NCBI GenBank assembly: GCA_964374105.1
Contig: CAYJXI010000005.1
Span: forward strand, 12,440 to 76,439
From: an uncultured Planctomycetales bacterium
GTDB taxonomy: Bacteria > Omnitrophota > Gorgyraeia > Zapsychrales > JANLHA01
DNA: 64,000 nucleotides
Reading direction: 5' to 3'
Part shown: piece after piece, positions 1-58,802 of the stretch
How positions within the stretch are numbered: the stretch's first letter is position 1
Layout: every line of letters begins with the position of its first letter
The notes under the pieces: generated by a model
Databases searched by the model: none
The model's input: only the letters and a program-made list of their open reading frames with translations
What the model was told of the DNA's origin: nothing
Program-made: the position numbers and the translations under genes

Positions 1-3000
1 TTGCTTTTTATATTGTTTTTTGGGACATCCAATGGTCAAAGTAAGGTTATTGAAGGTTATGATCCTATCACCGCAATGCGTCTTTTATATTTTTATTTTA
101 AAAATTATATGCTGAGAAATGATAAAGACATTCAACAATTCGGCAATTTTGTCGAAAGAATATCGAGCGGGGAATTTATAAAGGAACGATGGACGGCCTT
201 AAGTCAATTAATCGAATCCGCAGAAAAAGGGGAAATGGACAAAGAGTTCCTTAATTTAGGATTATTAGAAACCATTGCCTCTTCTGTAGGAGATGATGGT
301 GTTCAGGGTGCTTACAGAGAGTTGAGAAGAGTAGCTACCTACGTAAAGACTGATAAGGTGGCCTCGGGGATTGTGACAGCGGAATTTTTGAAAGAGTACA
401 GTAATGAGGCCAAAGGTTCCACCTCATGGGCTTACATGGCCATTGGAACATTATTTCGCGCCGGCATTGACAAGCGGTATCCGGCGGAAGAGGTTCGGAT
501 ATTTTTAGATAAACTTGTAAACAAATTAGGTGACTCGTGGATAGGTTATCAGAGTCTTGACAGTTTGGTCCGGAGTATTCTTTATGCTAAAGAAATCGAT
601 TCGGCCGTTTTAGATTTGCCTTTTCTTTCTTCCTTGCTCGAGTTTGATAATCCCGGTTTGGTTTTGCAGGCTTATTATCACTTGGCTAAGGCGGGGGTGG
701 TGAACAAAGAAAATTTTGAAAAAATAAAAAACCTTTTTGATATCATCAATGATGGAATTCATCGTTTTAATCGAAGTCCAGATCAAATTTATCAACCTCT
801 TAAGAAATTCATTCAGACGGTTAAGGATAAAGATTTAAACCGCAATGTTCTCAATATGGATGTCCTGGCAGCGGTATTCCGCAATATGCCGGGTAATGAG
901 GATTATCTTGAAAGAGAGTTCACAGCTTTAGAGCATCTGGCAGAAACGGTGAAGGCCGAGGGGCTGAATGAGGTGATTTTAGAACCCCGTGTCCTTTTAG
1001 GATCTTGGACAGGAGCCGGCACGAGCTTCGCTTGGGCTGCCGGCCACTTGCGTAATCTCGCTCGGGCGGTCAAAAGGGGAGAAGTGGATTCTTTTGTCCT
1101 TACCTCGGATTTGTTACCCTTTATGGCGGAGAATCTGCAGTATGACATCGCTTATGGCGCTTTGTTGTTGCAGGCGATGGCGGAGGCCGGTTTCGTTACC
1201 TCTGAAAATATGAAGGAAGTTAAAGAATTTATTACTGTTTTAGGCCAGGGGATCAAGAAATTCAGGGATGATTTAGCGTCATCCGGGAAGTTGGATGAGT
1301 CTGGCGTTATTCCCAATATGTTGGGTAGGTTAATAGAATTATTCCAAGGTTATGCCCAAAAGCAGATAGACAGCTTTGCGGTTGATTTTAATTTCTTAAA
1401 AGAATTTTTGAATCCAGAAAGAGGGCGCTTGAATGATGCACCGGCCAACTTACTAGCCCTTAACGATTTCGCGGAGGTCCTTAAAAGACAAGGGATTGAC
1501 CCTAAGACAATTCAGTATCCTATTGTGGAAGGCACCCAATTGACGAAGTGGGGTATCCAAAAATTTATTTTAGGGATGGGCCATGCTAAGATTGCCCCAT
1601 CTTTGGATATCATGAGTGTTTATCTTGATAAGGGAGGGATTAATGCCGAGAATATCAAGGATCTTTTAGATCTTGGGGCGGATTTAGGGGGTATCGTCAC
1701 TGGTTCTTATGGTCTCTCCCCGGAAGCATTGCTTGAGATCAAGTATCTCCTCAAAGCGGCAGGGCCGCAGGTCATCGATATTCCTTACTTAAATAGCCTT
1801 TTGAACACACTATGGCATAATCATTATGATGTGAAGGCCTCTATCCCTTTCTTCACCATGATGGGAAATCATGGGCTCTTGCGTCAGGATAACAGCAATG
1901 GGATTTCTTCGTGGTTGATGGGTATTTTCCATTTAATTAAAGTCAATTCAGGTCAGCAGCATTTCTCTGTTGCGTTGGAGGATGTATTGGCAATGCTAAA
2001 ATTAATGCTTGAACACGGCATTGTCAAGGAAGACAACCTAAAAATATTAAAAGAAATCATTAAGGAAATCCCGCCAGACAATGCCGTGCATTATTATAAA
2101 GGTATTGAAGATTTAGTTAATTTAGGTGTCGTGAAGCCATCGGATTTAGAGGAATTGAAGGTTTTGATCCATAATATGAATAAGATAAAGGAACTTAGTG
2201 CCCCAGCCAGACGCGCCGATCAGTCTTATCATTATGTTATAGATTTAATTAATAAGGTCAAACAGGAAAATTTAAGTCCGGCGGTTTTAGATATTAAACT
2301 TCTTAATACCCTCTTAGTATCTTTATTAAAAAACAGAGGGGATCTTCTTATTAATAGCGACCTAGCGTTCAGCGAGTTGGAAAGGCTGGCTTTAACGATC
2401 AAAAGAGAGCGGTTGACACCAGAGGTCTTTTTAAACCGTGATCTTTTGATCGCTTTGGTGGAAAAAGCGAATAGTATATCTGTAGCTTTCCATCGTTATC
2501 AAGAGATATTGATAGCTTCCGGCCATGAAATGTCCGAGATGATCCTTGGCCAGATACTTGATGGGATTAATATTTTTTACGCTCATGGGAGAATGAGTAT
2601 CGAAGAGTATCTGAACAAATTGCCTACTTTTCGAGCGGCTTGGCCGCCCAGTGATTTCATCAGGCACTCTCCGCTTTATGCTGCGGTTGAGTTGTTAGAG
2701 AACAAGGGGTCTCTTATTGAAGAAGTGGAATATGGCACCGACATTCTTCTCTACGAGATGGTTTTGCGAGGTCGGGTCTATCTTTTGCTTCTGCCGCCGG
2801 TATTGGCCGAGCAGCTTAAAGGCAATACCGCCCGGGAGATGCTTAAAGATATTAATCCTTCCAATTATGAAGAAGAGCTTCATCTGGCCGCCCTCTTTGT
2901 CACGCTGCGCCAGGACATCCCCTTAACCGCTGGATTAAGCTATGAGGAGTTTCTGCGTATTGTTAAAGGTGATACGACTTCCAAATACACCCCCATTATT

Positions 3001-6000
3001 TCCGCGTATATCCAAAAGAATGTCTTTGGCAAGGTCGAAAGACTAAACCTTAAGCAGCAGGACCAGATTATCGCGTTAGGGATCGCATTGCACCGGGCTG
3101 TCTTAGGGATGGTTAAAAAAGACGGCGGGAACGAAAATGTTATCACTTTTCGGGAATTGATCCGCTTCAACGAAAATTTCAGCCGATTTTATCTGAGAGA
3201 TACCGGCCTTAAAAATGTCTTGGAACTATTTATTTTGACGGCAACGAATATCTACGGACGAGTGCTCGACACCAGTGACAAACGCAAAGAATTCGCCAAA
3301 ATCCTTATCAAGCTCTTGGAAGGCCACCGGGAATTGTTAGGCCAGGCCCAGGTGGAGTCCGAGGGGTTAAGAGGCAATCTTGAGGACGTTGTTAAGAATA
3401 TTATGCTATTTGGAGATTATGAACATCTGGGGCGGCAACCGCAGGCCGAAGAAATTGTCCCTGAGATCAACATCCGGGCGCTGGTGGAAAGGGCTAGGCA
3501 GGTGGGCAGTGCCTCGCTTTTGATTGTCGATGATGACAATGCGGTCGTGGTCAATAGTGTCTTGACTCAGATGAGCCAGGAAGAAGATACGGTGATGATT
3601 CGTCTTTCGATGAACGGCTTCAGCCGCCGCCAGGAACTCTTTGGGATGTACATACCTAAGACGAGGCTGTCGGAAACGGAAATTAACTCCCAGTTAACCG
3701 CGGTCACTGAAGAGGAGGTTAAGAAGGCCCTAAAGGATATCCTTGGTTTAAAGGACGAGGAGATGGAGGCCGCCTTGAACGAGTGGCAGAAGTCTTTGAT
3801 TTTGAACACCAATCCTTTACTGCGTGAGGCGGTTGCCTTGTATCTGAAAAAGGGCGGTCAATGGCGGGAGTTTATGGAGTGGCAGGACGGGCTTTTAGTG
3901 AAACTGCGCGACCTGGCGAAAAAAAATCCTAACAAGAAATTTCTGTTAGCGATGGAGAATATCTCAGCGGCGCCGGATGGCGTGCGGCTTTTGTTAAACC
4001 CGGTCCTTTGGGAGAGGATGGTAGAGATCCCGGAAAAAGGAAGGCGGATTGAGCTGCCGGAGAATATGAATTTTATCTTGACGATGCACAAGGACACGGT
4101 GATTAAAGATGAGTCATTTATGAACCGGCCGCTGGTGCAGTATGTGCCTGATATGACCCAAGACGATTGGCAGAAGTATCTGACCATTAAGACAGGGCTG
4201 CCGGCCGCGGAGGCAGAGAATTTGTTGACGATTTTCAATCAGCTGGGAACGGTGAGGTTTAAAGAGGCGGTGCGGTTTAACGGTCATGATCTTTTGGAGA
4301 TCGCTCAACGTATCAAAGGCGTTAGCGAGGAAAAAACCGTCAAGGTCCCCGAATTCTTGCTGAAGGAGATTTATGATTATTTACTGTTACGTCTTCGTAC
4401 TCCGGAAGACAGGGAAAAATTGACTGCGGTCGTTTCGACATTCCCCGGATTTGAGATTCAGCCGCCGGTGATTGAAGTGGACCGGGAAAGGGCGGTCGTT
4501 AACTTCGATGGAGTTCAAGTCAAGGTGAGTAAGGCCTTTATCGACTATGCCCGTCGCAATCCTCAAAAAGATTTTGTGGCCTTGATGAATGACCGTTATC
4601 GTTACATTGTGACGGAAATGGAAATGCGGCTTCTCTCGCAGCTGGCCCGGGCCACGAAAGGCTACGGCAATAAGGCGATTCAACTGGAGGGCCCTTCGGG
4701 GGAAGGAAAAACAGAGATTGGCAGGGTCTGGGCGCGTCTGCTTGGGTTTAACTTACGCGAACGCACAATTAATCAGGATACGAACTTAAGCGAATTCCGC
4801 GGCCAGATACGCCCCACCAAAGACGGCCGGTATGAGTTATATGAACCCCAATATTTAACACAGATAGAAGAAGCACGGAATATCTTTTTGTTCAACGAAA
4901 TCAATACGAATGAATCCGGTAGTTTGTATTACTGGCTGTTTCCGGAGATGACGGGCCGGGCAGAGAAAGCCTTGGGTGAATTTGCCCAAACCTCGGATGA
5001 GTCAATTGTCAAAACAGCGCGGATTAATCAAAACAATCTGTGGCTTTTCACGGTCAATCCTGAGGCCAATTATTATGGACGAGGCATGACCCCGCCGATT
5101 GTTTCCTCTCATGTCACTGTCTTCACTATGGCCCAGGATTTAAATAACCTCCCGCAGGTCGTGGAGGGCCACCTTAGACGTAACGGACTCGCCAAACGAT
5201 TAAAGCCGGAATCCTTAAAATACGTCGTCAAGCGCCTAGCGGCTCTGCATTATCATTTAAAGCAGTTCAAAGCGGAAAAACGCCTATCTTCTCCGCAGGA
5301 TATCACTCCCCGGGATATCATCAGTGTGACGGATAAGTTTAAACAGTATTTAAGCGAAAAGATGGATCCCAAGCAGGCCTTGCTCCGGGCGGTCGAAGAG
5401 GTTTATGTTTATACCTGGCAGAAAGGCGCCGATGTTCAATTATCCCGTCTCGAGGTCAAAAAATTTTTTGGCAGAACGGAACAGACAACAGCGCTGGAGG
5501 CTCTGACAGCGGCCCTTAAACAGAAAGAACGTCCGGTGATGGTCTTTGGGAATGCTACCAATGATCCTCAGCAAATCAGAGAATATTTAAAGAAAGCAGA
5601 GCCAGAGGCCATTATTAAAGATGTGCCTTTAAGTTATTTCCACCGTCAGCGGCATTTCCTCGGGGGACTCATGCCCCTGGCCCGAGAGAAAAAGGAAGGT
5701 CTTGAGGCCAAGATCGATGCCTTAAGGCCGCCGCTAGAGGAGAAGTTAGGTCTTCTGCCAAGCCTTATTCAGGAGGCAAGGTTGAATCCCAATCGGACAG
5801 TCTTTGTCCTTCTTTATGAATATTCCCATTTAAACCCACAGGTCGCTCCTCTGTTAAACGAATTTTTCCAGACCGGCCGCATTGACGGCATAGAAGAGAT
5901 GGTGACGCTGGCTATCAGCGAAGAGCTTATCAACCTGCTTGCGGCTAAGGGCAAGTGGCAGCAGTTCCGGGAAGAGTTTCCTGGTCTGTTGCCGGAAGAG

Positions 6001-9000
6001 ATGGAGTCCTTAACAGAGGAACAAAAATTATCCTTTGCCCGATGGTTTTACAGCCAGGCCCCAAAGAATCTGCGTTTTGTTGCAACCAGTTCTAGTGTGG
6101 AAGAAATCAAGTTAAGCCCGGCCGAGATCAACCGTTTTCTCACCGTGAATATCTCTGAAGAATTCAATGCCCTTTGGCTTGAACGCTATCTGCGCCAGCA
6201 TATTTCAACGAAATTGAAACCTTATACGGCGTTGATTGGGAAAATTGTCCGCGAGACGTTTGATTTGTATGTTCAGCAAGCCAGAAATTGGGAGTATGAG
6301 CATAACCGGTTAGGCCGGCGCGATATCGCTGCCTTCTGGGAGCGCCTGGATCAAGAGAGCAGACTGGATGAAGATAAAATTAAGAAATTGGCCTTCTATA
6401 CGTTGGCTATGGGCTTAAGGACAAAATACCGCGAGGAATGGGAAGAGAAAATCGATTACCAGGAAGATTTGGCGGCCGCCAGAGACCAAGAAAGAATAAG
6501 TTATGCCCAGCGGAAGGATGGCATTTATTTGATTGTGGATGGCCTTGAGTTTAAAACCCGGTTGACCAAGATTCCAGAGGAAAAATTTTTAGCCCCTACC
6601 AAGGCCTATGTGCGGCAGTTGGCCTCGATTCTCTTAGGGTTAGAAAGCGGACGGCCTATCATTACGGAAGGGTATCCCGGCGGCGGCAAGACCTCCGGTA
6701 TAGAAGATGCGGCCAAGCGGATCGGGTTAAAATTTTATAAAGATTTAATGTATGAGGATATCGATTTAGGGGAATTTTTAGGCCGGTTGTCCAAAGAGGG
6801 CCAAGAATTTTTGGTCACGGCCTTAAAGCACGATGCGAACGGCCACCGGGTCGTAAAATTTTTGCGCGCTTATGCCGAAGGCGGCATTCACCTTTTGGAT
6901 GAAGGGGCGGTGGGAACAAATTCTCAGGAAGTGATTACCTTTTTAAGTGTGTTGTCGCAACTGCCTGCTATTGATTTAGGTGTTTTTCACCCCGGGTTAG
7001 CAGGCGAGGTCATCAAGAGACACAGGGATTTTCATCTTGCTATTGCCCAGAACCCGGCGCATTCGACCGCTGGGCGGGAAAAGATTTTATACAGTACCGA
7101 TACCTTGGCCCATAAAATCTGGACCGATAACGCCTTAGACCAAGAGGATGCCTTAGCGATTATTAATTATCATCTCGATAAGCCGGACGCTGTTCTTCAA
7201 TCGTTGAAAGAAGAGATGGCCACGATCCACCGGGAATTCACGGATGTCCATCCCCGCAGTGATGAGATAAGCCCGCGGCAGTTGATTATGATTGCTCGTA
7301 TCCTGAATCAGGCCCTGGAGGAAGGCCAGGACCTTGACCGTGCGGCCTTTGAAGGGGTTATGGCCGCCTATTTAACCGGTGTGTCCAAACAAGAATTTGA
7401 ACAAATATGGACAAAGGTGTCAGAAATCACGCAGGGCCGATTCGACCGGTATCTTGAGGAATGGAAAGAACCGATTGATGTGAAGATTAATGACGGATAT
7501 GTCCAGTTTAACGGGATGCGTCTGCCGAAATCTGTACCCAAGGGCAATATCCAACAAAATGACGTATTTATTATTGAGGATCTGCCTTTCGAGAGCCGGA
7601 GTCTGCGGGCCATGGCTTTGGGAGTCTTAATGAACATGCCGGTGGCGCTGTTAGAGGAAGAAGGGGCTGATGCCTTTGATCTTATCAAAAAGTTTGCGTA
7701 TTTAACAGGGTATGAACTGGTGCCTCTGTGGAGCCATCCGCAGATGACCAAGATGCATTTGCTGACAAGTTTACTGCCTAAGTTTGAGGCTCTGATGGAC
7801 CGTTATGGGATTAAACGGGAAGAGGCAGGTCAGGAATTTTTGATGAGTTTAGGGTTTATTGCGCGTTACCTTATGGAAGAAAAGGAATATAACGCCTTTA
7901 ATGAGGAAGAACGCCAGGCCCAAGCACAGAAACTTTTATTCTTCCATTTGATGGACGCGGTTCCGGAACGGCAGCGGGTGATGCTCAATGAGCTCTTAAC
8001 AACGAGCAAGATTCAACTCTTAAACGAAAAGGGAGAGGCGGTCACGTATGTCCTGCCGGAATGGGTCCACATTGTTGTCTCTTCCTCGTTAGAGCATAAA
8101 TTTTCTTCTGCCTTTATTAACCGATTTTTGCCTATTCAGGTCAATACCCTGGAGAATCTGGACGAATTGATCCATGTTATCCAGAACCGTTGGCCCCTCG
8201 TGCGCGAGGAAGAGGTGAGTTGGCTTAAGAAGGTGGTAGGCTTGGTAGTCCGTTATGAAAAACAAGAGGCCTTTGGTCTGCATTACGGATTTAGCCCGCA
8301 GGACATTTATAAACTCGCAGCGCTGATTCATCTGGAGAAACAGCGCGATATGGAAAACAATCGGTTTAATACCAACCCCTTATATTATTTCCTTAAGGCC
8401 ATAACTATTGTTTATGGTCTGGGGTTAGCCGAGGATGATGCGAAGATTTTTGAGGAAAAAATTGTGCAGGAAGGCCTCTTGGGGCCGTTATTGAACACGA
8501 CCGATAAAGATAAACTTGAGGACATCTATGCTCGTCTGCTGGCGCAGATCAAAAAGGATTTGGTGACCTTAGATCGGGAGGTTTATGAAATCCGCATCGA
8601 TGTTTCGCAGCTGGGCGAAGGCGAAGGACTTAAGGTCGCCAATGGCATGAGTATTAAGAGGAATGGCCAGGGGTATATCATCGAGACAGCCGGGGCTAAT
8701 ATTTATCAGGTGAGCGATCAAAATTTGAATGACTGGACTGATCTGACCAAAGGAAACGGGGAGCTCTTGGTCAAACAAGAGGGGGATCATCTCGTCTTTC
8801 AATTGAAGTTAATCAAGAGTATCGGTGGAGTGATTCTGCCCAGAGACGAATTTAACAGGATGAGGAGTCTGCCGGAGAACGAGGTGCCGACGAAAGAATT
8901 TATCCGTTTTACTCCGGAGATGCGTATGTTAGGGGCAGCTGTCCTGCGGGGATGGCAGCCGGTCGAGGATCATTTAGGGCGCCTCCGTCCTCCACGGGTA

Positions 9001-12255: not shown

Positions 12256-12316
12256 AAAGAAAGTACAACCGCGCCTACTTTTCTACAAATTTAACCCGGA
12301 TAGAACACCCCCATCG

Positions 12317-12844
12317 CTAATTTTTTAATAATTCTGTGTGTGTCCTTAAGAAATCTCTCACCTTTTCATTGAAGGGAACAAATACTTGATAGAGCTTTAG
12401 ATCCCCTGGCGCTTGAGGTTTGAGGATGCGGGCGACTCGACTTTTGAATCGAAAGCTTGTGGGGATGAGAGTTTCTTCCTCTTTTTGGAAGCCAATAGTG
12501 ACATTGGTTTCTGTATTAAAAGGAATAAATTTGGGGATACTACAGGAAAGACCGATTAAACTGATATCATTAGTTTGGCAGTTAAAATTTTCTTCAGATG
12601 TTTTAATCTGAACGGGGAATTTAAAATTGAATCGGCGATGACGTCTCTTTTCCGATAAGATGTTATCGGGATTTTTTAAACTCAAACGAAACTGTTTAAA
12701 CCCTTCCCCGTAGCGTTTGATCCAGTCTAAGGTGGCGGTGGCAAATCCAATTTCATATCCTATTTTTTCGCTTTCAATCCATTTGTGTTTACGGATTTCT
12801 AAAATAGCCAGCTCATCTTTGAGAAATGAATACGGATTCTTCAT
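12317..12844 (-). CDS. PilZ-domain protein (putative c-di-GMP receptor) with an uncharacterised N-terminal roughly 65-aa domain
   Basis: 175-aa ORF on the minus strand with a strong RBS (AAGGAGGG) 5-8 nt upstream of the ATG at 12844. It contains the RxxxR motif (RRHRR) followed about 21 residues later by D-I-S-L-I-G, matching the DxSxxG PilZ c-di-GMP-binding signature. The N-terminal segment has a W-x-ESEK-x-G...DW pattern that I do not recognise. Confidence 0.6.
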   Translation of the reverse strand: MKNPYSFLKDELAILEIRKHKWIESEKIGYEIGFATATLDWIKRYGEGFKQFRLSLKNPDNILSEKRRHRRFNFKFPVQIKTSEENFNCQTNDISLIGLSCSIPKFIPFNTETNVTIGFQKEEETLIPTSFRFKSRVARILKPQAPGDLKLYQVFVPFNEKVRDFLRTHTELLKN

Positions 12845-13095
12845 TCAACCCTCCTTCTTTTTAAAGGTTAAACGGATTATATCAGATCGCTTTTTCAAAT
12901 CAAGCGATATTTCAACTTTTTATCGACGGAGAGGATGGGTTTTAAAGAAGTCGAAGGAAATTCATAAAAAGAAATTGGGATATGGCAGACTCACCAGTCT
13001 GATAACCAAATTTGTTATTTATAATAATATATTTTATACTTATTCTGACTCATCTTTTAAATTATCTCAAAATTATTTTAAAGCTCTCATTCAAT

Positions 13096-19000: not shown

Positions 19001-22000
19001 AGAATATCGTGGATTATGCGGATTATACGGATTTGAAACGCTTACCCCAGGAAGAGGAAATCCCCTTAAAAGTCACCATCAAGGCCGTGATTGAGCGGTC
19101 ATTACAGACAGACAGTGCTCCCCTCCTAATTGTTGATGATGACAATTCCATCCTAGTCGAGGAGGTTTTAGAAGAGTTGAGCCAACAAAAAGATACTGTC
19201 ATGATCCGCATCACGATGAATGCCTTCAGCCGGCGGCAGGAGTTGTTTGGCATGTATCTGCCTAAAAAGCTTTTGTTGGAAAGGCAAGTCAATGCGCTTG
19301 TTGAGACGGCCCCCCAGAGCGATATTCAAGCTGCCCTCAAAGAGATTTTGGGGTTAAAAGAAGATGAGGTCGACTCTTATTTTAAGGAATGGCAGAACAC
19401 CTTGAGTTTAAGGGAAGACCATTTTCTGCGTCAGGCCATAGCCACCTATTTGAATAATAAAGAAGATTGGCGTCAATTTATGGAATGGAAAAACGGGGTT
19501 TTGGTCAGGTTAAAGGAGAAGGCCAAGAAAGACAAAAAGAAAAAGTATCTCATCAATCTCGATAACATCTCCGCCGCCCCGGATAGTGTGCGGCTCCTTT
19601 TGAATCCTGTTTTGTGGGAGCGAATGGTGGAAGTTCCTGAAAAAGGAATGCTTTTAGAATTACCCTCTAATTTGAATTTCATCATGACCATGCATAAGGA
19701 TACAAAAATCATCGACGACGCATTTATGAACCGTCCCTTAGTCCAACACGTTGCCCCTTTGAGTCAGACAGATTATATTCGTTATTTGACAAAAAGCGTC
19801 GGCCTTCAAAAACAAGTGGCCGAACATCTATTGGGAATATTCTCTGAGATTAAAAGACAAGGATTTTTCGAAGACCCGAGACTCAATTTTCATGATCTTA
19901 TCGAAATCGCCAAACGTGCGACACGGGTTTCCTTAGAAAATGATTTGAAACAGGAAGATGTCCTTTTTAAAGAAGCCTTTGATTACCTGTTCTTAAGGAT
20001 GAGGAATGAAAAGGATCGAGACAATTTGAAAAAAATCTTGTTCAGTGACAAAGAGCAAGGTCTTTATCATCCTCTTAAGATCACCGTTGATCGAGAGAAT
20101 GGTGAGATCAACTTTGATGGGGTGAGGCTTAAAGCCTCACCAGCATTCTTGGGTCATTTAAAAGAAACCCCCGAAGCTGATTTTATTAAATTGATGAATG
20201 ATCATTATGGATATATCGTGACGGAATTAGAGATGAGTATTCTTTCTCAGTTGGCGCGTTCCATGAAATATGGTAACAGGGTCGTTCAGTTGGAAGGGCC
20301 TTCCGGGGAAGGGAAAACGGAAGTCGGCCACGTCTTTTCTAAGCTCATTGCTCTTAATCTGGTTGAGCGCACAATCAATCAAGAGACAAATCTGTCAGCA
20401 TTCCGCGGGATCATTCGGCCCACCAAAGCAGGGCGTTATGAATTGTATGAGCCGGTGTATTTAGAACACATTGAAGAGGGCGGGAATTTATTTTTATTGA
20501 ATGAGATCAATACCAATCAATCGGGGGGATTGTATTATTGGCTGTACCCTGAGATCACTCAGCGTGATCACAAAACATTAAGTGAATTCGCTGACATAAG
20601 CGATGAGTCAATCGTCAAAAGGGCCCGGATCGACCAAAATAACCTTTGGCTGTTTACCGTGAATCCGTATGGGTTTTTGGGGCGCGGCATCACTCCTCCC
20701 ATTATCCCCTCCCAAGTCAGTATCTTTTATATGGCCCAGAATCCCGATTCCCTTCCCGAAGTCATCCGCGGTTATTTTGAACGAAACGGTTTACGTGAAG
20801 TTCTTTCCGGTGATTTGTTCAAAGAATATGTGGATAAATTGACATCCATCCATAAGGCCTTAAGAGAGCTTAAATTCACCTATCGATTGCGTTCTCCCCA
20901 AGACATTACCCCACGGGAACTGATCAGTGTCACAACAAAATTTCGCAACTTCATGGTAGAGGAAAAATTAACGCCTAAGGGAGCCTTCCAACGCGCCGTT
21001 GAGGAAACTTATACTTATGTTTGGAAGAATTTAGAGGATATAAAACTGGTGCGTTCGCTGGTCAATGAGATCAATGGGCATGCGGGAAATACGTATCAGG
21101 ATAGAGCGTTTTTGAATAGGGTTGTTGTCGAAGCAACTCGGCCAGTGATGATCTTTTTAACGGCCGCCAATGATCTTACCCAATTGGAAGGATCCATCCA
21201 GGAAAAAGATCCCAAGGCCCAGCTTTTTCATATTCCGTTAAGCTATTTTCACCGCAACCGGCAGTTTGTAGGAGGATTGATTCCTAAGGGGGAAAAAAAG
21301 GTTTTGAGCGGCCGATGGAAAGAAGTCCATCAGTTGACAGCGCAGTTAGAAGAGGGGTTAGGGATCATCCCGGAATTGATCAAAGAGGCGAGGTTTAATC
21401 CCGAAAGAAACATTTATGGCATTTTATATAATTATACGCATCTTAATCCTCAAGTGGCTCCCTTATTGAACGAATTTTTCCAGAAAGGATACTTAGAGGG
21501 AATCGAGGAGCTTATCACCTCAAGGGTCAGTGAGGAATTGTTAAGGCAACTGAAATCACAACCTCAAACCATTTGGCAACAACTCCGAGGAGACTTCGCT
21601 GGCAGTCTTCCCGGGGAGATTGAGCAATTGTCAGATGAAGAAAAACTTTCCTTTGCGCGGTGGTTTTATTCAAAAGCACCCCGGAATTTACGATTCATCG
21701 CAACAGGCTCGAGTGTAGAAGAAACCAGTTTAAGTCCGGCCGAATTGAATCGCTTCTTGGCGGTTAATATTTCTGCAGAAATGGACCTTGAATGGTTAGA
21801 GAATTATTTGGGAAATAAAATAAGTCAAAATGGCTTGGATGCTTATGAATCACAGATCAGTCAAGTGGTGATTCCCGCCTACCAATTCTATCAGCAACAA
21901 ATGGCCCTTTATGAATACGACCACAATCGTTTGGGGAGAAGTGATGTTGATGCTTTTATTGAAACCTTGAAGGAATATCCCAGCCTCAATCCTTCTCTTA

Positions 22001-25000
22001 TCAAAAAATTAGCTTTTTATACATTCGGGATGGGATTAAGGCCGAAATTCAGGGATGAATATCAACTTAAGATCAAATATCAGGAAGAATGGGGACAGCA
22101 GACCAATCTCTTTCGATATGAAACCAGAGCAGATGGTATTTATCTTATTGTGGATGGGATTGCCATGAAAACACAACTGAAAGAGATCCCTAAGAAACGA
22201 TTTTTAGCCCCCACCAAAAATTTGATCCGGCAGATGGCCTCCATGCTGATAGGTTTAAAAAGGGGGAGGATCCTCATTATCGAAGGGGAACCTGGAGGAG
22301 GCAAAACCTCAGGATCAGAGGATCTGGCCGAGCGCTTAGGGTTGGATTTTTATAAGGAGCTCATGTACGAGGATATCAATCTGGGAGATTTTTTGGGAAG
22401 GCTTTCTAAGGAAGGGAATGAATATGTTCTGACAGCTTTAAAGAAGGATCCTCAGCAAAGACCCTTGATCAGATTTTTGAAGGCTTATACACAGGGAGGG
22501 TTATTTTTATTAGATGAAGGGGCTATTGGTTTTAACTCCCAAGAGGTGATTTCCTATCTAACGGAATTAGCCCAATTGAAGGAATTTGATTTAGGCTTGT
22601 TTCATCCGGGATTAAAGGGGCAGGTTTTGAAACGTCATCCCCAATTTTATTTGGCGATGGCCCAGAATCCGGCCAAAACAACCAAGGCCAGAAAGCCGGT
22701 TCCCTATCGAGTGGATACCCTGGCTCACAAGACATGGTCAGACAATATCCTTGATGAAGAAGATGCGATCCGAATCATGGATTATTATCTCACCAGTCCT
22801 GAAGCCATCTCTCTGGATTTGAAAAAGAAAATCGTCAACATCCATATCCAGTTTTCCCGGCAGCATCCCCGGAAAGAAGAATTAAGCCCCCGACAAATCA
22901 TTATGATCGCCCGACTTTTAACCCGGGCCATTGAGGAAAATGCCAATCTTGAGCGAGCCATTTTTGAAGGGCTTATGCTGGGGTATTTAACCGCCGAGTC
23001 GCAAGAGGAATTCACCAAATTATGGTCGGTGGTTGACCAGCAAATGCAAGGGAGGCTCAATCGATATTTAGCCGAATGGAAAGAGCCAGTGAAGATCGAA
23101 AAAGAAGACAATTTTATTCGATTAAATGGAACTAAATTGACCAAATCGGGGACGGAAGGCAATGTCTCGGAGAGAGACTTCCAAATCATTGAGAATTTAC
23201 CTTCCCAAAGCAAGAGTCTTCGGGCGCTGGCCTTAGGGTTATCCATGAATATGCCGATTGCCCTTCTTCAAGAGGATGGGGCCGATGCCCTCGATTTAGT
23301 TAGGAAATTCGCCTATAAGGTCAACTACGAACTTCATACGTTATGGTCTCATCCGCAAATGACTAAGATGCACGTTCTGGAAAACTTATTGCCCAAATTC
23401 AAAGCCCAATTTGATCGTTACGGGATCAAAGAGGAAGAGGTCACGAAAGAATTTATTATGGGATTAGGATTTTTGGCCAGGCATCTCATGAGACACGCAG
23501 AATATGAAAAACTTGACCTTAAGCAAAAAACCACCCAAACCCAGAAGATTCTTTTCTTTCATTTGATGGATGCGATCCCAGAGAAACAGCGGGTTTTATT
23601 AAATGATTTACTGAATACAAACAAAATTGAACTGATCGATGAGAAGGGAGAAGCTGCCATTTATATTTTACCCGATTGGGTGCATATCATGATCTCCTCT
23701 CCGGTAGAACACAAATTTTCCTCCGCATTTATCAATCGTTTCTTACCCATTCGGATTTCCCCGATTTCTGATTTAGATGAGATAACAACCGTCATTCAAA
23801 ATCGCTATCCTTTGGTTAAGGAAGATGAGGTTGTTTGGCTAAGACAAGTTGCAAACACGGTTTATGAATTCGATAGAAATGGTGTCTTTAGTCTTCATTA
23901 TGGATTTAGCCCCCGGGATGTTTTCAAACTAGCCGCCTTGGTGCAATTAGAAAAGCAGCGGGATATCGAGATGGGGAAGTTGAGTGACGATCCGCAAAAC
24001 CCAAAACGAGTTTCTCTCTACCAGAATCCCCTGTATTATGTGATGAAGGCATTCTTTCTGACTTATGGGTTGGGGATCAAAGAATCCGACTACGCGATCT
24101 TTGAGAACGAAATCATTAAGAAAAAGTTCTTAATGCCATTGGGGAAGGGGAGAGAACCACGCATCGTCAATGAGGTGTATGAAAAGATCAAAGCCAGAAT
24201 AAAGGAAGATTTGTCCGGATTAGAGACCGAGGACTATATCTTGAGGGTGGATATAGGTCAGATGGTGGAAGGCAAACTTGAGACCCTCCCGAATGGAATG
24301 AATATAACTCGAACGAAGGGAGGTTTTATTATTACCACTCTGTCGGCCAATGTCTATCAAGTGAGAGATGACCAATTGAAGGATTGGGTAAACCTAAATC
24401 CGGACAGCGATGAATTTTCTCTGAAGCTTGAAGAAAATCAAATGATTTTTAAATTAAAATTGATAAATAGTATCGGAGGGGTCTTCATCCCCAGAGATGA
24501 AGTCAACCAATTATTGAGTTTACCGGAAAGAGAAGTCCCTACCAAAGAATTTATCCGCTACACTAAAGAAATCCGATACCTTGACTCAAGCATTTTGCGG
24601 GGATGGCAAAGGTTCAAAGATTATAGCAATCGGATGGAGGCCCCCCGGGTTCTTTTGCTGAATGGCCTCACCGGGACAGCCAAAACAACCTTGATTAGAA
24701 ATATTGCCAGAATTTGGGGGGTGCCCCTGTATATCCTTAACTCCTTTGAGGAGATCAAAGTGTCGGATTTGACCGTGGGACTTAAGTTGAGGGAAGGGAA
24801 GTTTCAGGTCGGAATTAAGGAATTTTTGGCTCGGGTGGGTAAAATCAACGGGACTCGCTTCAGCATCCCTTCCAAAACCACCTCAAACCGTTCTATCCTT
24901 TTAATTGATGAGGCGAATGCCAATCCAGAAATCCTCTATGCCCTAGCCCCCTTATTCCGGGGGGAGAAAAAGTTTACTGTGGAATATGTAGGGGAAAGTT

Positions 25001-27921
25001 TTGCGGTCGAGGTTGATAGTGAGGTGATGGTTGTTTTGACATTTAATCCTGTCGAAACTTATGCCGGGCGGGGAAAATTTGCTGATGAAATTGTTTCGTT
25101 TGCAGAAAAACTTTGGGCGCCGGATCCTCTCAAATACCCCGAGGAGGTTTTGGTGAGTATTTTGCAGGAATACCACCGGCGGGGCATCACAAAGACTCGT
25201 CAGGAAATTGAACGGCAACTGCCCAGTTTGCCCTTGATCTCTCAAGAAGGGTTTAAAGAGGTTGAGCCCTCTATGGTGGAAGTCAAAGCCGCGCCCCATC
25301 CTTTGGTGGAAAGTTTAGACTCGGTTTTGGGAGGGCCTAAAGAACCAGAAGCTGAGGGTGAGAAACCCGAGGTCAAGATAGAAGAGAAGAAACCCAAAGA
25401 AAAGATCCAGATCAAGATAGAGTACGATACCACACTGATCAAAGAGGCGGCCAAGCAATTTAAAAAGGAAGAGGGTCCTTTGTTCTTTATCGAGAATATT
25501 TTGAATGGATTTCTCTCTGCGATCGCCAATGGCAATTCTGATGAAGAGCTAAGAGAGTTGGTTTTAAAGGTTTCCGATCTCCTCGGAGTGGACGTTGGGC
25601 GAGTAGTTAAAGATATCATCGAGATTTATCAAAAGAATTTGATCAATGAAGGTGAGCTCAAAGATGCACTTCTTGAATTAAGACGAGTTTTTATCAAAAG
25701 AGGACTTGCCGTATTTATGAAAATCGTAGTCAAGGATGATACCCCGTTCATTGTTTTGACGACTGAAGAAATTCAGCGCATGAAGAGATTAAAAGCCGAT
25801 GATTTAAGCAAATTGGGAGAAGATTGGGTCAAATATAAAAGGAATCTTCCTCGGACGTTGGTAGTCAAAGGGAATAAATATAAACGCCCGGGAGTGAGTG
25901 GATTTTTTGAAGGGGAATTGGCCTTCGCCTTCGAAGAGGTGGCTCAGAATGAAATGATAACAGCCAAAGTATCGGCCATTTCGAATGTGACTTTTGAAGA
26001 ATTCGTTGATTGGATTGCCCTCCATGAACTAGGACATGTCATGGATAAGATGAGACTTAAAGTGAGGGGATTTGAGGTTCAAGAAAAGAAACCCTGGGAA
26101 AAATTGATTCAGGATGTGAATACCTCCGGAATCGGGGTATGGCTTTCTCAGAATATTGAATTGAATGCGATGATCTTACCCTTGATATTCTCCCCGAAGG
26201 CTAAAGAGTTTGCTTTATACGAACTGGTTCATATGGCCAACACCTTAAGAGATGTTAATGATTATTATTTTCAAGCCGCCCGGGGAATCTTGAATGCCCT
26301 TATGAAATACCTCTACGAAAAGGGGGAAATCAAAGAGTTGGTTGTATTAGAAGAAGATTTTACCGATGAATTTGACCGGCGACTCAATTTGATCAAAAGT
26401 GTCATCGAGAAAATGACTTCTAAGGAGCTGAATGCGATGGGGGCGGTTATTTATCAGAATCCGGCTAAGTATTTCTTTGAGGTCAAGGGAGGAAAGTATA
26501 AATCGAAGATTCTAGTCATGAGCGGTCCCGATAGTATTGAGGAAGTTTCTTTGGGGGTAGATGGGATACCGGATGTCGATATGCAGTATGCAGAGAAAGA
26601 GGGTGAAGTTGAAATTACAACTCCACCCAGCGAAGGGAATAAGTCCAAATTGATTCGGGAACCGAAATGGAGTGAGGCCACAGAAGAAGGAGAAGAAGGC
26701 CCTAAAGGGCCGCCGAGCGGTCAAAAAGGCGAAATAGAGGAGGCGGTCAAGGAAGAGGAATTGACTTCAGGATTAAAGAAACAAATTGAGACTTTGAAGG
26801 AAATCAATCCTAATCTGATTTCTCGATTTTTAGAGAATTTTGCGGGGACCCCAGAGACGATTAAGGAATATGCTGATACCGGAGACCGGATTGATGTAGA
26901 AAGAGCCATGATAGGGGATCCGGAGGCCCTCTTTACCGAAAAGACCTTGGAGAGACTCGCGCAATTAAGTATTGGCTTGACGATTGATGTCAGCGGAAGT
27001 GTCCGTGGGTGGTTGCTGAATCAGTTTATTACGATGGCTCGGTATTATTCGTCTTTATTTCATTATGCTTCAGTGAAAAATAAAGAAGTCGATTTTTCGA
27101 TCAGTGCGGTTGGGGATTTTTTTCATTCTATTTTGAAATTTATCGATGCCAGAAACAGGGAGGCCGTGGAAAAGGCCTTAGATAAGATCTCTGAGATTCG
27201 TGACAGCGGGGGGATCAACACGCTATCCGTGATCAAAGGCCTTCGAAATAAGTATTCACAGCAAAAAGACAAGGTTTATAAGATGGAGATTGTCTTAACC
27301 GATGGCGGGGAAACCTCGGGAGTCGCTTTTAAGGAATTGCGGGAGAAAGTTATTCAATTGGAAAAGGACCTCGGGATCGATGTGGTTTTTATTGGGATCA
27401 ATACAAAAGAGGTCAGTAATTATTCTAAGTTTATCGTTTTGGATAAAAATCCAAAGGCCGAAGATCTGATTCAATTGATTATTAAACTGTCCATGTTAAA
27501 AAGCCGGGAAGGCATGTTGCCTTACGGGGATTTAGGTGAGTTATTAGGAATCGTCCCCAAAAAGAAGGGGGAGGCCCCCGAGGCCCAATTAATCCCTGAG
27601 CGTCAATCTCCAAATCCAACTTTAAAAAGATCTGATAAAGCCATATTGACCAACCAACCACCCGGAGGGATTGATCTTAATCCAGCCAATTTCCAATTAG
27701 AGATCAAGCGGGATGAAAACGGCATCCCTCTTCCTATTCCTTTACAGCCGATTGAACAAATGAAGATTGATGGTTTTGTACCCATTATCATCAATATCAC
27801 ACCCATTCATAACCTTCCCAACATTTTTGGGGGGCTTCCGAATAAAGACAAACCCTCTGACTCCTCGACCTTAAGTTATCGCCAGGAATCGGAGATGGAA
27901 TTGGTGGGTACTACCCCTTAA
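13096..27921 (+). CDS. Giant multidomain protein B (about 4941 aa). It has a Sec signal peptide, an N-terminal domain, an array of ~45-aa helical repeats, three AAA+ (AAA_5/midasin-like) modules, an HExxH motif and a C-terminal vWA/MIDAS domain.
   Basis: Uninterrupted 14.9-kb ORF. The ORF track starts at TTG 13012, but the in-frame ATG at 13096 gives MRISKPFQRFVALWVLISFLGTSSYA|QT, a textbook signal peptide. Walker A GPSGEGKT at 20296-20319 with LFLLNEIN at 20488-20511. GEPGGGKTS at 22285-22311 with LLDEG around 22510-22521. NGLTGTAKTT at 24661-24690 with LIDEANA at 24901-24921. HELGH at 26023-26037. MIDAS D-V-S-G-S at 26986-27000 and LTDGGE at 27295-27312. Conserved C-terminal tail at 27658-27807. 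Confidence 0.85.
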   Translation: MRISKPFQRFVALWVLISFLGTSSYAQTILSLPAPGTMVTVSEGFMPPTLRGVTIHPDNPLSFDFILDMGDSQLKTQDLERESSKLIKYFLASLTIPENELWVNLSPYEKEKIISDQFGLTEMGRDLLAQDYILKQLTASLIYPENELGKKFWDRVYQKAYELYGTTQIPVNTFNKVWIVPERAVVYEQGNTAFVVDTHLKVMLEGDYLALSENFKRRNFTEDQLLDKEVKELDQMSSSIVKEVILPEIEREVNEGEHFSQLRQIYHSLILAVWYKQNLKESLLSKVYVNQGKVDGVDIEDKQSKEKIYERYLEAFQKGVYNYIKEDYDAHTESLIPRKYFSGGVQFSLEKVKDQAILTTVKKKEQLPLESRKQLLRHIERARQGRFNLIAATLAETTGDAQAFLRNHLARLKTEDSDPLSQESRLNQGLSEITTGLIGKQYEVTDVRVEKERLILTTKDKKTISLNVREKKWITQDELVARFKTAFTGNGNLKLITDIVKLLPEKIQVLTFENLEGDLLGLASRKLGLLALHQNLANNPTALFHEIGEFLGQSEGEAQAPLNLEFKITKTQAKTLGFLYVRDQKGRAMRKLAVEQPEVVDLFQKGPKNHHYLLRGMQRILLPQEDKQLSIEIKKALHEEELKKETRAVFKRIEEEATGNVSLQDKLTNDQAQIKEILDLLTLAYLVSQRAVERDSLKAIFMGILQSDSSEFRNSIYESLKNLGRSAILEELNPHLIRYDILARLISKGGEQSPLLINITRSFAQARILTGDNLDKFEFLMLNVIPSNSKRGEIYQSLLKLSELALEELDSYVILGILNLDFIRQILDELKQDTPKALKILIGLTQLGVITQEAKRDKLKTLKALFSGRDTERYRKQKIYDSLLHLTETFAEKGLNPQILDLEIIRADFLAISKNSDVAMDTFLALTEIGFIEPKTLKRISGLLSTLGMGDYNSKDNYDSLLKLVKAVKTEDLPSQLLDFDLLSTVISSSRLGSHRVLDMLLEMGRAVKTNGVNPVIVDLTLLKAVLNHSPWHSHDVYKEILSLAETVKSHNLPVGTLSKDTLMSLLEYTKINAGKGIQILKALAIGGAIKYGELDRVRGLFVIFTGQDSEFYNSTLQHIEESIRLQLDPVVLDFDLMKNIFMQKIAPIDSSFRALRELAEAVKTKGLDPSLLDVRLLGVVTKKERPGLAEMINGLKTLGEYVNKYHLADLKHNILDVELLKTIAEEADENIYKSLAMLARTVKEKHLDEIALDRELLIDIIRHSKGFATAKQLDLLSSIAKAGLLYPDNLERFKDFIRQINELRESFRDDFSQIFEAIAGLFDSAQKGEINEFIIDFDLILGILERSPKPISILNSLKEIGKAVKVKGVNLTVKGLEGPSAQEQEYNLATKLIQQSTHTATIHKSLDLLTELIESGFVQRDIKQAARFIALVNEDLFDVLIELLRSFRKKNVNTSVYDPDFISQVISMTKDANVYGIEALKELAEADMLIEGRKEEIMTFFQDITNIVKEEFRADAFQVLSHFIKSSVIKFGRFKEIIDFYNKINKLNNQPWPYQAILALDKVGRVRFENLKDLETLLLIIDQKTSSYDYLNSIISSTQYVKDNELATVILEPKLLTEILAKEISHPEFKKILDQLIELAKVIKRKDIPIQLAIHLDSFRYIFGNFAPNYSLEIFKWYTDFLKENSESLNSVLIEGIWDGMKLVKTIKEEQGGEGQKEVSQFLNWFSSHFVKDKELFPLHFSFKTFAEEGKFTIDRFSVENNLYLLPTEIRQKIKEKGFEEILKEVNPSNYLEEVYAASLYVALRRDVQVAIGLTFKEFLEILNGKANSPFSSLVTSLIQRKVFKMELELTPSQQEQIITLSIALHKAMLDLFHESATSGSVTFRELIRFNVSFSKFYLQQIGLENVIEYFILTAYNIYGRIIDTQEKKEKFTKAMIGLLYSDKFKLLLGQAQIESEGIRGKISEIIQNIVDYADYTDLKRLPQEEEIPLKVTIKAVIERSLQTDSAPLLIVDDDNSILVEEVLEELSQQKDTVMIRITMNAFSRRQELFGMYLPKKLLLERQVNALVETAPQSDIQAALKEILGLKEDEVDSYFKEWQNTLSLREDHFLRQAIATYLNNKEDWRQFMEWKNGVLVRLKEKAKKDKKKKYLINLDNISAAPDSVRLLLNPVLWERMVEVPEKGMLLELPSNLNFIMTMHKDTKIIDDAFMNRPLVQHVAPLSQTDYIRYLTKSVGLQKQVAEHLLGIFSEIKRQGFFEDPRLNFHDLIEIAKRATRVSLENDLKQEDVLFKEAFDYLFLRMRNEKDRDNLKKILFSDKEQGLYHPLKITVDRENGEINFDGVRLKASPAFLGHLKETPEADFIKLMNDHYGYIVTELEMSILSQLARSMKYGNRVVQLEGPSGEGKTEVGHVFSKLIALNLVERTINQETNLSAFRGIIRPTKAGRYELYEPVYLEHIEEGGNLFLLNEINTNQSGGLYYWLYPEITQRDHKTLSEFADISDESIVKRARIDQNNLWLFTVNPYGFLGRGITPPIIPSQVSIFYMAQNPDSLPEVIRGYFERNGLREVLSGDLFKEYVDKLTSIHKALRELKFTYRLRSPQDITPRELISVTTKFRNFMVEEKLTPKGAFQRAVEETYTYVWKNLEDIKLVRSLVNEINGHAGNTYQDRAFLNRVVVEATRPVMIFLTAANDLTQLEGSIQEKDPKAQLFHIPLSYFHRNRQFVGGLIPKGEKKVLSGRWKEVHQLTAQLEEGLGIIPELIKEARFNPERNIYGILYNYTHLNPQVAPLLNEFFQKGYLEGIEELITSRVSEELLRQLKSQPQTIWQQLRGDFAGSLPGEIEQLSDEEKLSFARWFYSKAPRNLRFIATGSSVEETSLSPAELNRFLAVNISAEMDLEWLENYLGNKISQNGLDAYESQISQVVIPAYQFYQQQMALYEYDHNRLGRSDVDAFIETLKEYPSLNPSLIKKLAFYTFGMGLRPKFRDEYQLKIKYQEEWGQQTNLFRYETRADGIYLIVDGIAMKTQLKEIPKKRFLAPTKNLIRQMASMLIGLKRGRILIIEGEPGGGKTSGSEDLAERLGLDFYKELMYEDINLGDFLGRLSKEGNEYVLTALKKDPQQRPLIRFLKAYTQGGLFLLDEGAIGFNSQEVISYLTELAQLKEFDLGLFHPGLKGQVLKRHPQFYLAMAQNPAKTTKARKPVPYRVDTLAHKTWSDNILDEEDAIRIMDYYLTSPEAISLDLKKKIVNIHIQFSRQHPRKEELSPRQIIMIARLLTRAIEENANLERAIFEGLMLGYLTAESQEEFTKLWSVVDQQMQGRLNRYLAEWKEPVKIEKEDNFIRLNGTKLTKSGTEGNVSERDFQIIENLPSQSKSLRALALGLSMNMPIALLQEDGADALDLVRKFAYKVNYELHTLWSHPQMTKMHVLENLLPKFKAQFDRYGIKEEEVTKEFIMGLGFLARHLMRHAEYEKLDLKQKTTQTQKILFFHLMDAIPEKQRVLLNDLLNTNKIELIDEKGEAAIYILPDWVHIMISSPVEHKFSSAFINRFLPIRISPISDLDEITTVIQNRYPLVKEDEVVWLRQVANTVYEFDRNGVFSLHYGFSPRDVFKLAALVQLEKQRDIEMGKLSDDPQNPKRVSLYQNPLYYVMKAFFLTYGLGIKESDYAIFENEIIKKKFLMPLGKGREPRIVNEVYEKIKARIKEDLSGLETEDYILRVDIGQMVEGKLETLPNGMNITRTKGGFIITTLSANVYQVRDDQLKDWVNLNPDSDEFSLKLEENQMIFKLKLINSIGGVFIPRDEVNQLLSLPEREVPTKEFIRYTKEIRYLDSSILRGWQRFKDYSNRMEAPRVLLLNGLTGTAKTTLIRNIARIWGVPLYILNSFEEIKVSDLTVGLKLREGKFQVGIKEFLARVGKINGTRFSIPSKTTSNRSILLIDEANANPEILYALAPLFRGEKKFTVEYVGESFAVEVDSEVMVVLTFNPVETYAGRGKFADEIVSFAEKLWAPDPLKYPEEVLVSILQEYHRRGITKTRQEIERQLPSLPLISQEGFKEVEPSMVEVKAAPHPLVESLDSVLGGPKEPEAEGEKPEVKIEEKKPKEKIQIKIEYDTTLIKEAAKQFKKEEGPLFFIENILNGFLSAIANGNSDEELRELVLKVSDLLGVDVGRVVKDIIEIYQKNLINEGELKDALLELRRVFIKRGLAVFMKIVVKDDTPFIVLTTEEIQRMKRLKADDLSKLGEDWVKYKRNLPRTLVVKGNKYKRPGVSGFFEGELAFAFEEVAQNEMITAKVSAISNVTFEEFVDWIALHELGHVMDKMRLKVRGFEVQEKKPWEKLIQDVNTSGIGVWLSQNIELNAMILPLIFSPKAKEFALYELVHMANTLRDVNDYYFQAARGILNALMKYLYEKGEIKELVVLEEDFTDEFDRRLNLIKSVIEKMTSKELNAMGAVIYQNPAKYFFEVKGGKYKSKILVMSGPDSIEEVSLGVDGIPDVDMQYAEKEGEVEITTPPSEGNKSKLIREPKWSEATEEGEEGPKGPPSGQKGEIEEAVKEEELTSGLKKQIETLKEINPNLISRFLENFAGTPETIKEYADTGDRIDVERAMIGDPEALFTEKTLERLAQLSIGLTIDVSGSVRGWLLNQFITMARYYSSLFHYASVKNKEVDFSISAVGDFFHSILKFIDARNREAVEKALDKISEIRDSGGINTLSVIKGLRNKYSQQKDKVYKMEIVLTDGGETSGVAFKELREKVIQLEKDLGIDVVFIGINTKEVSNYSKFIVLDKNPKAEDLIQLIIKLSMLKSREGMLPYGDLGELLGIVPKKKGEAPEAQLIPERQSPNPTLKRSDKAILTNQPPGGIDLNPANFQLEIKRDENGIPLPIPLQPIEQMKIDGFVPIIINITPIHNLPNIFGGLPNKDKPSDSSTLSYRQESEMELVGTTP
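15280..17240 (+). repeat. Array of tandem degenerate ~45-50-aa alpha-helical repeats inside giant protein B, seen at the protein level. Consensus is roughly h..L..LAxxVKxxGLxPxxLDhxLL.
   Basis: Repeated segments with a similar pattern, for example NPQILDLEIIRADFLAIS, LPSQLLDFDLLSTVISS...LLEMGRAVKTNGVNPVIVDLTLLKAVL, LDPVVLDFDLMKNIF...LAEAVKTKGLDPSLLDVRLLGVV and INEFIIDFDLILGIL...IGKAVKVKGVNLTV. Giant A carries analogous repeats in roughly nt 300-2300. Confidence 0.4.
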
Positions 27922-58774: not shown

Positions 58775-58802
58775 AAATTTAAGGGGGGGGTAGAAAATAG
58801 AC

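Follow-up and report, generated by a model that had tools for sequence, protein, structure and literature searches.

Chains with six tandem MoxR-type AAA modules are held to have arisen early in eukaryotes, where they gave dynein and midasin (PMC3495828). Bacterial MoxR-vWA systems, such as CbbQ-CbbO, NorQ-NorD, RavA-ViaA and the MoxR-vWA-YebA transglutaminase operons, differ in that they consist of homohexamers of ~300-amino-acid (aa) subunits plus a separate vWA protein, and for MoxR-vWA operons a proteolytic partner has been proposed in the form of transglutaminase-like peptidases (PMC3495828). Here we describe two giant genes, A and B, that adjoin on the same strand of a 64,000-nucleotide stretch of DNA (the window; positions 12,440 to 76,439 of contig CAYJXI010000005.1, assembly GCA_964374105.1) from an Omnitrophota bacterium. 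Their products are best described as members of a rare family of bacterial machines in which one chain joins six MoxR/AAA_5 modules to peptidase-like and MIDAS domains, here carried on a phylum-specific giant-protein scaffold.

Each chain has six AAA-type modules, three with a P-loop (M1, M2 and M3) and three degenerate (D0, D1 and D2), all on the plus strand like every other feature of the giants. In giant B, D0 (19213..20220) is of AAA_5 type with a match to a midasin-type lid (Pfam AAA_5 C-half, E 2e-4, and AAA_lid_7), and is followed by M1 (20221..21177), D1 (21184..22107), M2 (22114..23094), D2 (23095..24192), a small beta-rich domain that is kept in relatives (24199..24495) and M3 (24496..25545). 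The order D0-M1-D1-M2-D2-(beta domain)-M3 occupies 3607..9891 in giant A (A aa 1203-3297), as read from Pfam AAA_5 and AAA_lid_7 matches and from the local hidden Markov model (HMM) architecture of P0002, the full-length database counterpart of giant A, shifted by 840 aa. A first-pass annotation of the window, made from the letters alone, had read three AAA+ modules with their Walker motifs and expected additional degenerate modules between them; three such modules were indeed found, making six in total. All of the Walker motifs are present in A and B and conserved in relatives, namely GPSGEGKT with FL(L/F)NEINT in M1, G(E/Y)PGGGKTS with LLDEGA in M2, and NG(L/R)TGTAKTT with LLIDEANA in M3 (GEPGGGKTS, NGLTGTAKTT and FLLNEINT, the last with Asp replaced by Asn, in giant B). 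The sensor-1 Asn is present in M1 (FTVNP in B) and M3 (LTFNP), and the Walker A Lys/Thr, Walker B Glu and sensor-1 Asn are invariant among relatives at 25-50% identity.

The P-loop modules belong to the AAA_5/MoxR clade, as had been proposed, rather than to an unrelated P-loop family. Pfam AAA_5 (PF07728) scores 69.4 bits in A and 70.6 bits in B, against a cut-off of 22, and M3 is the best-matching module of B. Four separate stretches of B match this family, and tiling located the fourth, partial match (2130-2203), together with a lid match (2260-2315), upstream of the first P-loop. The midasin AAA lid matches in A and B are sub-threshold. An NCBIfam scan returned matches at the P-loop level only, and PDB searches with single sequences, run for the AAA region and for the C-terminal region, were uninformative.

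The degenerate modules were recognized from a structural model. An AlphaFold2 (AF2) model of B 2690-3860 (D1-M2-D2), built on an 8-sequence alignment, has a predicted local distance difference test score (pLDDT) of 70 and a predicted template modelling score (pTM) of 0.47. In this model M2, which is canonical in Walker A and B, forms a complete AAA_5 module with a visible lid and pre-sensor-1 hairpin, and D1 and D2 follow the same strand-helix order minus the P-loop, with the beta-alpha-beta order, the pre-sensor hairpin and the 'xxAxxNRF' motif of AAA_5. D1 carries YNYTHLNPQVAPLLNEFFQ, LRFIATGSS and LSPAELNRF. D2 has LLQEDGADALD in the place of the P-loop, LFFHLMD at the Walker-B position, a pre-sensor hairpin and SSAFINRF, and the beta-rich domain that follows it was delimited from AF2 secondary structure (model residues 1020-1104). 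An initial hhalign comparison of the three P-loop modules with the whole region missed the D modules, which the AF2-based boundaries revealed. With these boundaries, M1, M2 and M3 match one another at 95-98% probability, and D0, D1 and D2 match one another at 85-90% (E about 1e-6). Given that hhalign yields separate D and M groups, the region is a triplicated pair of one degenerate and one P-loop module, D0-M1-D1-M2-D2-M3. Foldseek aligned 1,100-1,260 columns of the D1-M2-D2 model to dynein motor domains, including the AAA2-AAA4 fragment 7mi3 (E 1e-14 to 1e-15), and the model matches dynein and midasin across two to three consecutive modules.

Downstream of M3 lies a zincin-like HExxH domain, at 10204..10653 in giant A (A aa 3402-3551; HELGH at aa 3456) and at 25858..26322 in giant B (HELGH at aa 4310-4314, with NIELNA about 40 aa downstream). 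The slot between M3 and the vWA domain is marked by HE(L/I)GH followed 20-45 residues on by N-(I/L/V)-E-L. In 13 members, at 25-49% identity, the H, E, G, H, N, E and L are invariant (domain alignment positions H86, E87, H90 and N129-x-E131), and the HExxH motif singled out earlier is deeply conserved. An HExxH motif with a distal Glu would fit the gluzincin pattern. In one relative, P0124, the HExxH domain is absent and a Transglut_core domain (E 8e-7; residues 3533-3594) takes its slot, flanked by M3 (3044-3180) and vWA (3771-3878). We take this displacement by a transglutaminase core as support for a peptidase role of the slot.

The vWA domain itself lies at 11167..11925 in giant A (DISGS, GGINT, TDGEET; Pfam VWA E 5.4e-7, 30.4 bits) and at 26818..27582 in giant B (DVSGS, GGINT, TDGGET; E 5.6e-6, 27.1 bits, from a B tile). 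Both scores pass the curated cut-off of Pfam VWA, and the MIDAS residues DxSGS, GGINT and TDGxET(S) are conserved among relatives at 25-50% identity. The C-terminal vWA domain with a complete MIDAS, which had been proposed from the motifs, is thus borne out by both Pfam and the alignments. About 420 aa separate M3 from vWA, and they hold the HExxH domain plus an acidic/Gly-rich linker of ~70 aa (B ~4499-4568) that directly precedes the vWA domain.

The gene models agree with the view that adjacent same-strand open reading frames (ORFs) encode homologous megaproteins. Giant A (1..12255, +) is open at the window start and contributes the C-terminal 4,084 aa of a protein whose full length, 4,924 aa, is given by P0002 (contig L001, GCA_947085705.1). 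P0002 is 99.98% identical to giant A across all 4,084 residues, and supplies the upstream continuation that had been suspected, that is, the missing 840 N-terminal aa with the signal peptide and the N-module. The complete giant B (13096..27921, +; 4,941 aa) is identical to the database protein P0001; its ORF spans 13012..27921 and the likely start is the ATG at 13096, which gives the length that was first reported. In a BLASTP alignment of 4,140 columns, A 42-4078 and B 935-4921 are 45% identical, and the collinear part is therefore ~4,000 aa rather than the C-terminal ~3,100 aa of the first-pass annotation. GC content and GC content at third codon positions (GC3) are 0.46 and 0.52 in giant A (0.48 and 0.55 in its core) and 0.42 and 0.46 in giant B, and GC3 is 0.38-0.46 in the housekeeping genes of the window. 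Identity between A and B is no higher than identity to homologues from other genomes (43-47%). Given this distance and the differing GC3, a recent tandem duplication is ruled out, and the pair reflects either an old duplication or two separate acquisitions; giant A may have an origin separate from that of giant B.

The ends of the giants belong to a scaffold that is much more widespread than the AAA-vWA cassette. Giant B begins with a putative Sec-type signal peptide (13096..13173; aa 1-26) that reads MRISKPFQRFVALWVLISFLGTSSYA followed by Q, with R2/K5/R9, a hydrophobic core and a predicted cleavage site between S-Y-A and Q. The 'AQ' at this site is nearly invariant in 24 homologues, consistent with the Sec signal peptide of the first-pass annotation. 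No further hydrophobic or transmembrane (TM) segments were found in B. Next comes a conserved N-terminal module with no known fold (13174..14145; aa ~27-350), which is 55-65% identical to more than 100 proteins and 62% identical to that of full-length giant A. The C-terminal counterpart is a tail at 11986..12243 in giant A (GGIDLNP...GFVPIIINITPI) and, as a consensus match, at 27598..27891 in giant B. The ~55-aa tail consensus, GGIDLNP..L.I..D....LP...Q.....I.GF.PVIIN..P, was found in 114 of the 130 proteins retrieved, and in each of them it lies no more than 52 aa from the C-terminus. The N-module and tail occur together in most of the 120 listed of 481 matches, proteins of 2.7-6.1 thousand aa whose middles include phosphoglucose isomerase, phosphoglycerate kinase, enolase, GAPDH, malate synthase, PEP carboxykinase, UbiB kinases, methyltransferases and receiver domains. 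Several of these bookend proteins share one contig, for example P0025 and P0045 on a 29-kb contig (set P0008-P0120).

The signal peptide, N-module and C-tail are thus not specific to A and B but are shared with hundreds of Omnitrophota giants. Because these bookends are shared with giants that carry unrelated enzymes, the AAA-vWA cassette is one of many cargoes on a common scaffold, and the shared scaffold implies the same export, anchoring or delivery route as for other Omnitrophota giants. A targeting system that has not been described is suggested by the bookends. Giant B has a Leu-rich internal repeat array between its N-module and its cargo (15163..18405; aa ~690-1770), so that the scaffold would run from Sec signal peptide through N-module, repeat array and cargo to C-tail. 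The repeats are real at the profile level (hhalign probability 95-99% and E down to 2e-18 between non-overlapping windows), and BLAST self-comparison of B 400-2080 detected none. The helical nature of the array, which had also been claimed, is suggested by composition only.

The cassette defines a rare family of about 70 clusters, mostly labelled Omnitrophota. A homologue search with the core alone, covering 5.8 billion clusters, returned 12 proteins, of which 11 are giants from metagenome-assembled genomes and the twelfth is a fungal midasin (E 3e-5). Six of these giants have a named source, five being Omnitrophica/Omnitrophota and one Elusimicrobiota. A scan of 185,579 species genomes gave 13 loci with a similar predominance of Omnitrophota labels. 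An exhaustive profile search yielded 505 cluster representatives at E<=1e-3, 67 of them at E<=1e-30. Its upper tiers are bacterial giants of 2-7.6 thousand aa, one of them labelled Chlamydiota, and below them come proteins of ~4,400-5,600 aa, each matched in 5-8 stretches; two of these were looked up and proved to be fungal, one of them annotated as midasin. In local HMM searches the order D0-M1-D1-M2-D2-beta-M3-Zn-VWA is kept in about 30 cluster representatives. A word-indexed search with M2 alone (window 22111-23094) gave no match at E<=1, not even to itself, and negatives from short P-loop queries of this kind are untrustworthy.

Searches of the literature turned up no description of the cassette. 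In two preprints on Omnitrophota giants (Nielsen & Lui 2026; West-Roberts et al. 2023), the passages reached by term searches contain no AAA_5-HExxH-MIDAS cassette, and the conserved pair of N-module and C-tail is not described in those passages. The relatives that share the cassette vary in their N-termini. Those of P0121, P0125, P0141, P0145 and P0133 are very different from those of P0131, P0134, P0137 and P0144, and the cassette is the same. Some lack a hydrophobic segment, P0125 has a PQQ/NHL beta-propeller, and others combine a signal-peptide-like start with several TM-like segments.

We suspect, with slightly better than even confidence, that each gene encodes a self-contained MoxR-type AAA+/vWA/peptidase machine in one polypeptide; our confidence in the architecture is high, and in the mechanism moderate. 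In this scenario the six modules would form a closed pseudo-hexameric ring like those of dynein, midasin and RNF213, in which the three ATP sites of M1, M2 and M3 would alternate with three structural modules. The MIDAS domain may capture a protein substrate by one of its acidic residues, the ring would use ATP turnover to pull on or remodel the captured substrate, and the HExxH domain may then cleave it. Such a machine would be a fused version of the proposed bacterial MoxR-vWA-peptidase operons, and a functional parallel to midasin as it strips assembly factors.

Several observations weigh against this scenario. The AF2 model represents only half of the ring, at a pTM of 0.47, and hhalign matches between D and M modules are weak (E 0.005-0.4). 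In most members the Walker B of M1 reads N-E instead of D-E, and the Walker A of M3 is deviant (GxxGxAKT). Because the HExxH domain matched no family in Pfam or PDB, the best weak matches being Peptidase_M60 (E 0.009, in two of 13 members) and M90 (E 0.2), its membership of a known peptidase family is not established. No HExxH domain is detectable in a more divergent subfamily, which also carries large insertions. The bacterium is a diderm (BamA, Skp and LpxA/C/D/I are encoded in the same window), and a signal peptide without any other TM segment predicts an extracytoplasmic location, judging from the sequence, where ATP is not expected. The catalytic residues are conserved even though a chain that is exported would be deprived of ATP, which leaves two readings: delivery to an ATP-containing compartment such as a host cell, or an N-terminal segment that fails to export the chain as a whole. 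Among relatives with the cassette, some have signal-peptide-like N-termini and others do not.

The giant ORFs could in principle be artefacts, a chimeric contig or falsely fused reading frames, given that they come from a metagenome-assembled genome and that ORFs of this size are prone to misassembly. However, contig L001, an independent assembly, has the same order of giant A, PilZ gene (on the opposite strand) and start of giant B, which makes a chimera very unlikely; there are no internal stops in either giant over 27 kb of reading frame, and the domain order is collinear in the ~30 relatives from other samples. We give this explanation close to no weight. Another explanation is a delivered effector, which would leave the producer via Sec and the N-module/C-tail route and enter, or attach to, a host or prey cell, where host ATP would drive the remodelling or degradation of host complexes. 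An episymbiotic or predatory lifestyle, as proposed for Omnitrophota, would suit such an effector, and passages of the literature on Omnitrophota giants propose host dependence and surface or attack roles (PMC10066038; 10.1101/2023.11.21.568195; 10.64898/2026.06.07.730766). It also agrees with the signal peptide and the lack of other TM segments, and the bookend paralogues carry cytosolic enzymes that likewise need ATP or NAD. Nevertheless, no translocation machinery was identified beside the genes, whose neighbours are housekeeping genes, the close relatives P0121 and P0125 are without any signal peptide, and no known mechanism moves a 550-kDa chain across two or three membranes, so we regard an effector as fairly unlikely. 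A wider proposal, that Omnitrophota export an arsenal of giant chains, from glycolytic multi-enzymes to a dynein/midasin-like single-chain AAA ring, by an undescribed N-module/GGIDLNP-tail route to work in or on a host cell with host ATP, and that, quite apart from such export, single-chain hexameric AAA_5 rings with a MIDAS tail evolved in bacteria, is unlikely as a whole. We also think it improbable that the giants are mainly structural, as surface or coat proteins or adhesins whose AAA, HExxH and vWA parts are relics or binding modules without ATPase or protease activity. The predicted location, the long repeat array, the frequent role of vWA domains in adhesion and the degeneracy of three of six AAA modules would suit such a role, and a role as adhesins or coats has been proposed for giant ORFs of Omnitrophota (PMC10066038), but the invariance of the Walker, sensor-1, HExxH and MIDAS residues at 25-50% identity is unexpected for relics, and relatives without a signal peptide exist.

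The remaining alternative is that the giants are true relatives of eukaryotic midasin, either an ancestor-like form or the product of gene transfer between eukaryotes and bacteria of the PVC group. The comparison with midasin made in the first-pass annotation holds in part, since the closest detectable sequences outside the family are eukaryotic midasins, which share the six modules and the C-terminal MIDAS; the modules are not, however, collinear with midasin AAA1-6. The sole outside match of the core search and the fungal tier beneath the family speak for kinship, as do the sub-threshold midasin-lid matches, the MIDAS that follows an acidic linker, and M2, which of all modules comes nearest to midasin AAA5 (31 bits over 170 residues, versus ~17 bits over 60 residues for NorQ and a MoxR structure). 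On the other hand, the M-type (M2) part of the profile is the only part that any of the six midasin modules match, the six modules of the giants arose inside the bacterial family, as the D/M triplication shows, and the solved Rea1/Mdn1 chains are not among the sequence matches at E<=1. Whole-protein midasin scores are inflated by the addition of 5-8 weak stretches, and there is no homology in the N-terminal or linker regions. Direct descent is therefore weighed against, and we consider true kinship quite unlikely. The likeness to midasin is architectural, and most likely reflects a parallel invention that was independent of midasin.

The gene between the giants encodes a 175-aa PilZ-domain protein (12317..12844, -; Pfam PilZ, PF07238, E 6e-10) with intact cyclic di-GMP motifs, RxxxR (RRHRRF) and (D/N)xSxxG (NDISLIG). 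It had been put forward as a possible regulator of the giants. The gene is present, but the proposed link was rejected, as it lies on the opposite strand and PilZ is absent near the relatives at all 13 of 13 related loci; it is probably not part of the giants' system. The remaining genes of the window are housekeeping genes. Comparison with vWA-MoxR conflict and defence systems (Kaur et al. 2020; PADLOC) identified no defence system and gave matches at the P-loop level only (IetA 23.5 bits, mad8 21.5 bits), again with housekeeping neighbours.

A few other features of the surroundings deserve mention. At window 58265-62282, a UVR-motif protein, an ATP:guanido phosphotransferase and a ClpC-type double-AAA protein are encoded in a row, in a McsA-McsB-ClpC-like arrangement within a diderm that has BamA and Lpx genes. 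The McsA-McsB-ClpC arrangement is best known in Firmicutes. A 442-aa ORF at 48314-49642 is a fusion of LpxC with a FabA/FabZ-like dehydratase, and lies inside a BamA-Skp-LpxD-LpxC/FabZ-LpxA-LpxI cluster. The ORFs at 52720-53574 (284 aa) and 62537-63559 (340 aa) have no Pfam match at E<=1e-5. On contig L001, ~6-10 kb upstream of giant A (135-3734), there are genes for a small Dockerin_1 protein, a receiver-domain protein, an alpha/beta hydrolase and a cellulase-family protein.

From the perspective of the evolution of AAA machines, it is interesting to consider that a bacterial lineage built the same kind of chain as early eukaryotes by another path, in which a degenerate/active pair was tripled, the MIDAS partner was kept and a peptidase-like domain was added. 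If true, early eukaryotes would no longer be the sole origin of hexameric AAA_5 rings made of one chain with a MIDAS domain, contrary to the present view, and the family would serve as a natural experiment on how single-chain AAA rings evolve. It may also offer a compact model for the action of MoxR-vWA-peptidase systems, the mechanism of which is still poorly understood. For Omnitrophota, it provides a concrete conserved cassette with which the roles of giant proteins can be studied, and the bookends sharpen the question of where the cytosolic enzymes of these giants work.

Among known systems, midasin (Rea1/MDN1) resembles the giants in being a single chain of ~4,900 aa with six AAA_5-clade modules, of which AAA5 is nearest to M2, and a C-terminal MIDAS/vWA domain preceded by an acidic stretch. 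It differs in that the modules of the giants form a triplicated degenerate/active pair, whereas the two fungal midasins examined have P-loops in all six. The giants also lack the ~1,700-aa linker, have an acidic region of ~70 aa instead of hundreds, add an HExxH domain, are bacterial, and begin with an unrelated N-terminal 2,000 aa (signal peptide, N-module and repeat array). Compared with the dynein heavy-chain motor, no stalk, microtubule-binding domain or buttress was detected in the giants, no dynein Pfam family reached threshold, and the vWA and HExxH domains are absent from dynein. The MoxR-vWA systems share the association with a peptidase, which is mirrored by the HExxH/transglutaminase slot (PMC3495828), but the giants fuse all components in one chain, with three degenerate positions and a signal-peptide scaffold. 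Finally, the Omnitrophota giant 'multi-enzyme' proteins are of the same phylum, are likewise multi-kiloresidue chains with a signal peptide and cytosolic-type domains, and include proteins that have the N-module and C-tail in common with both giants. The 2026 catalogue of their domain architectures covers proteins of at least 10,000 aa, above the 4.9 thousand aa of A and B.

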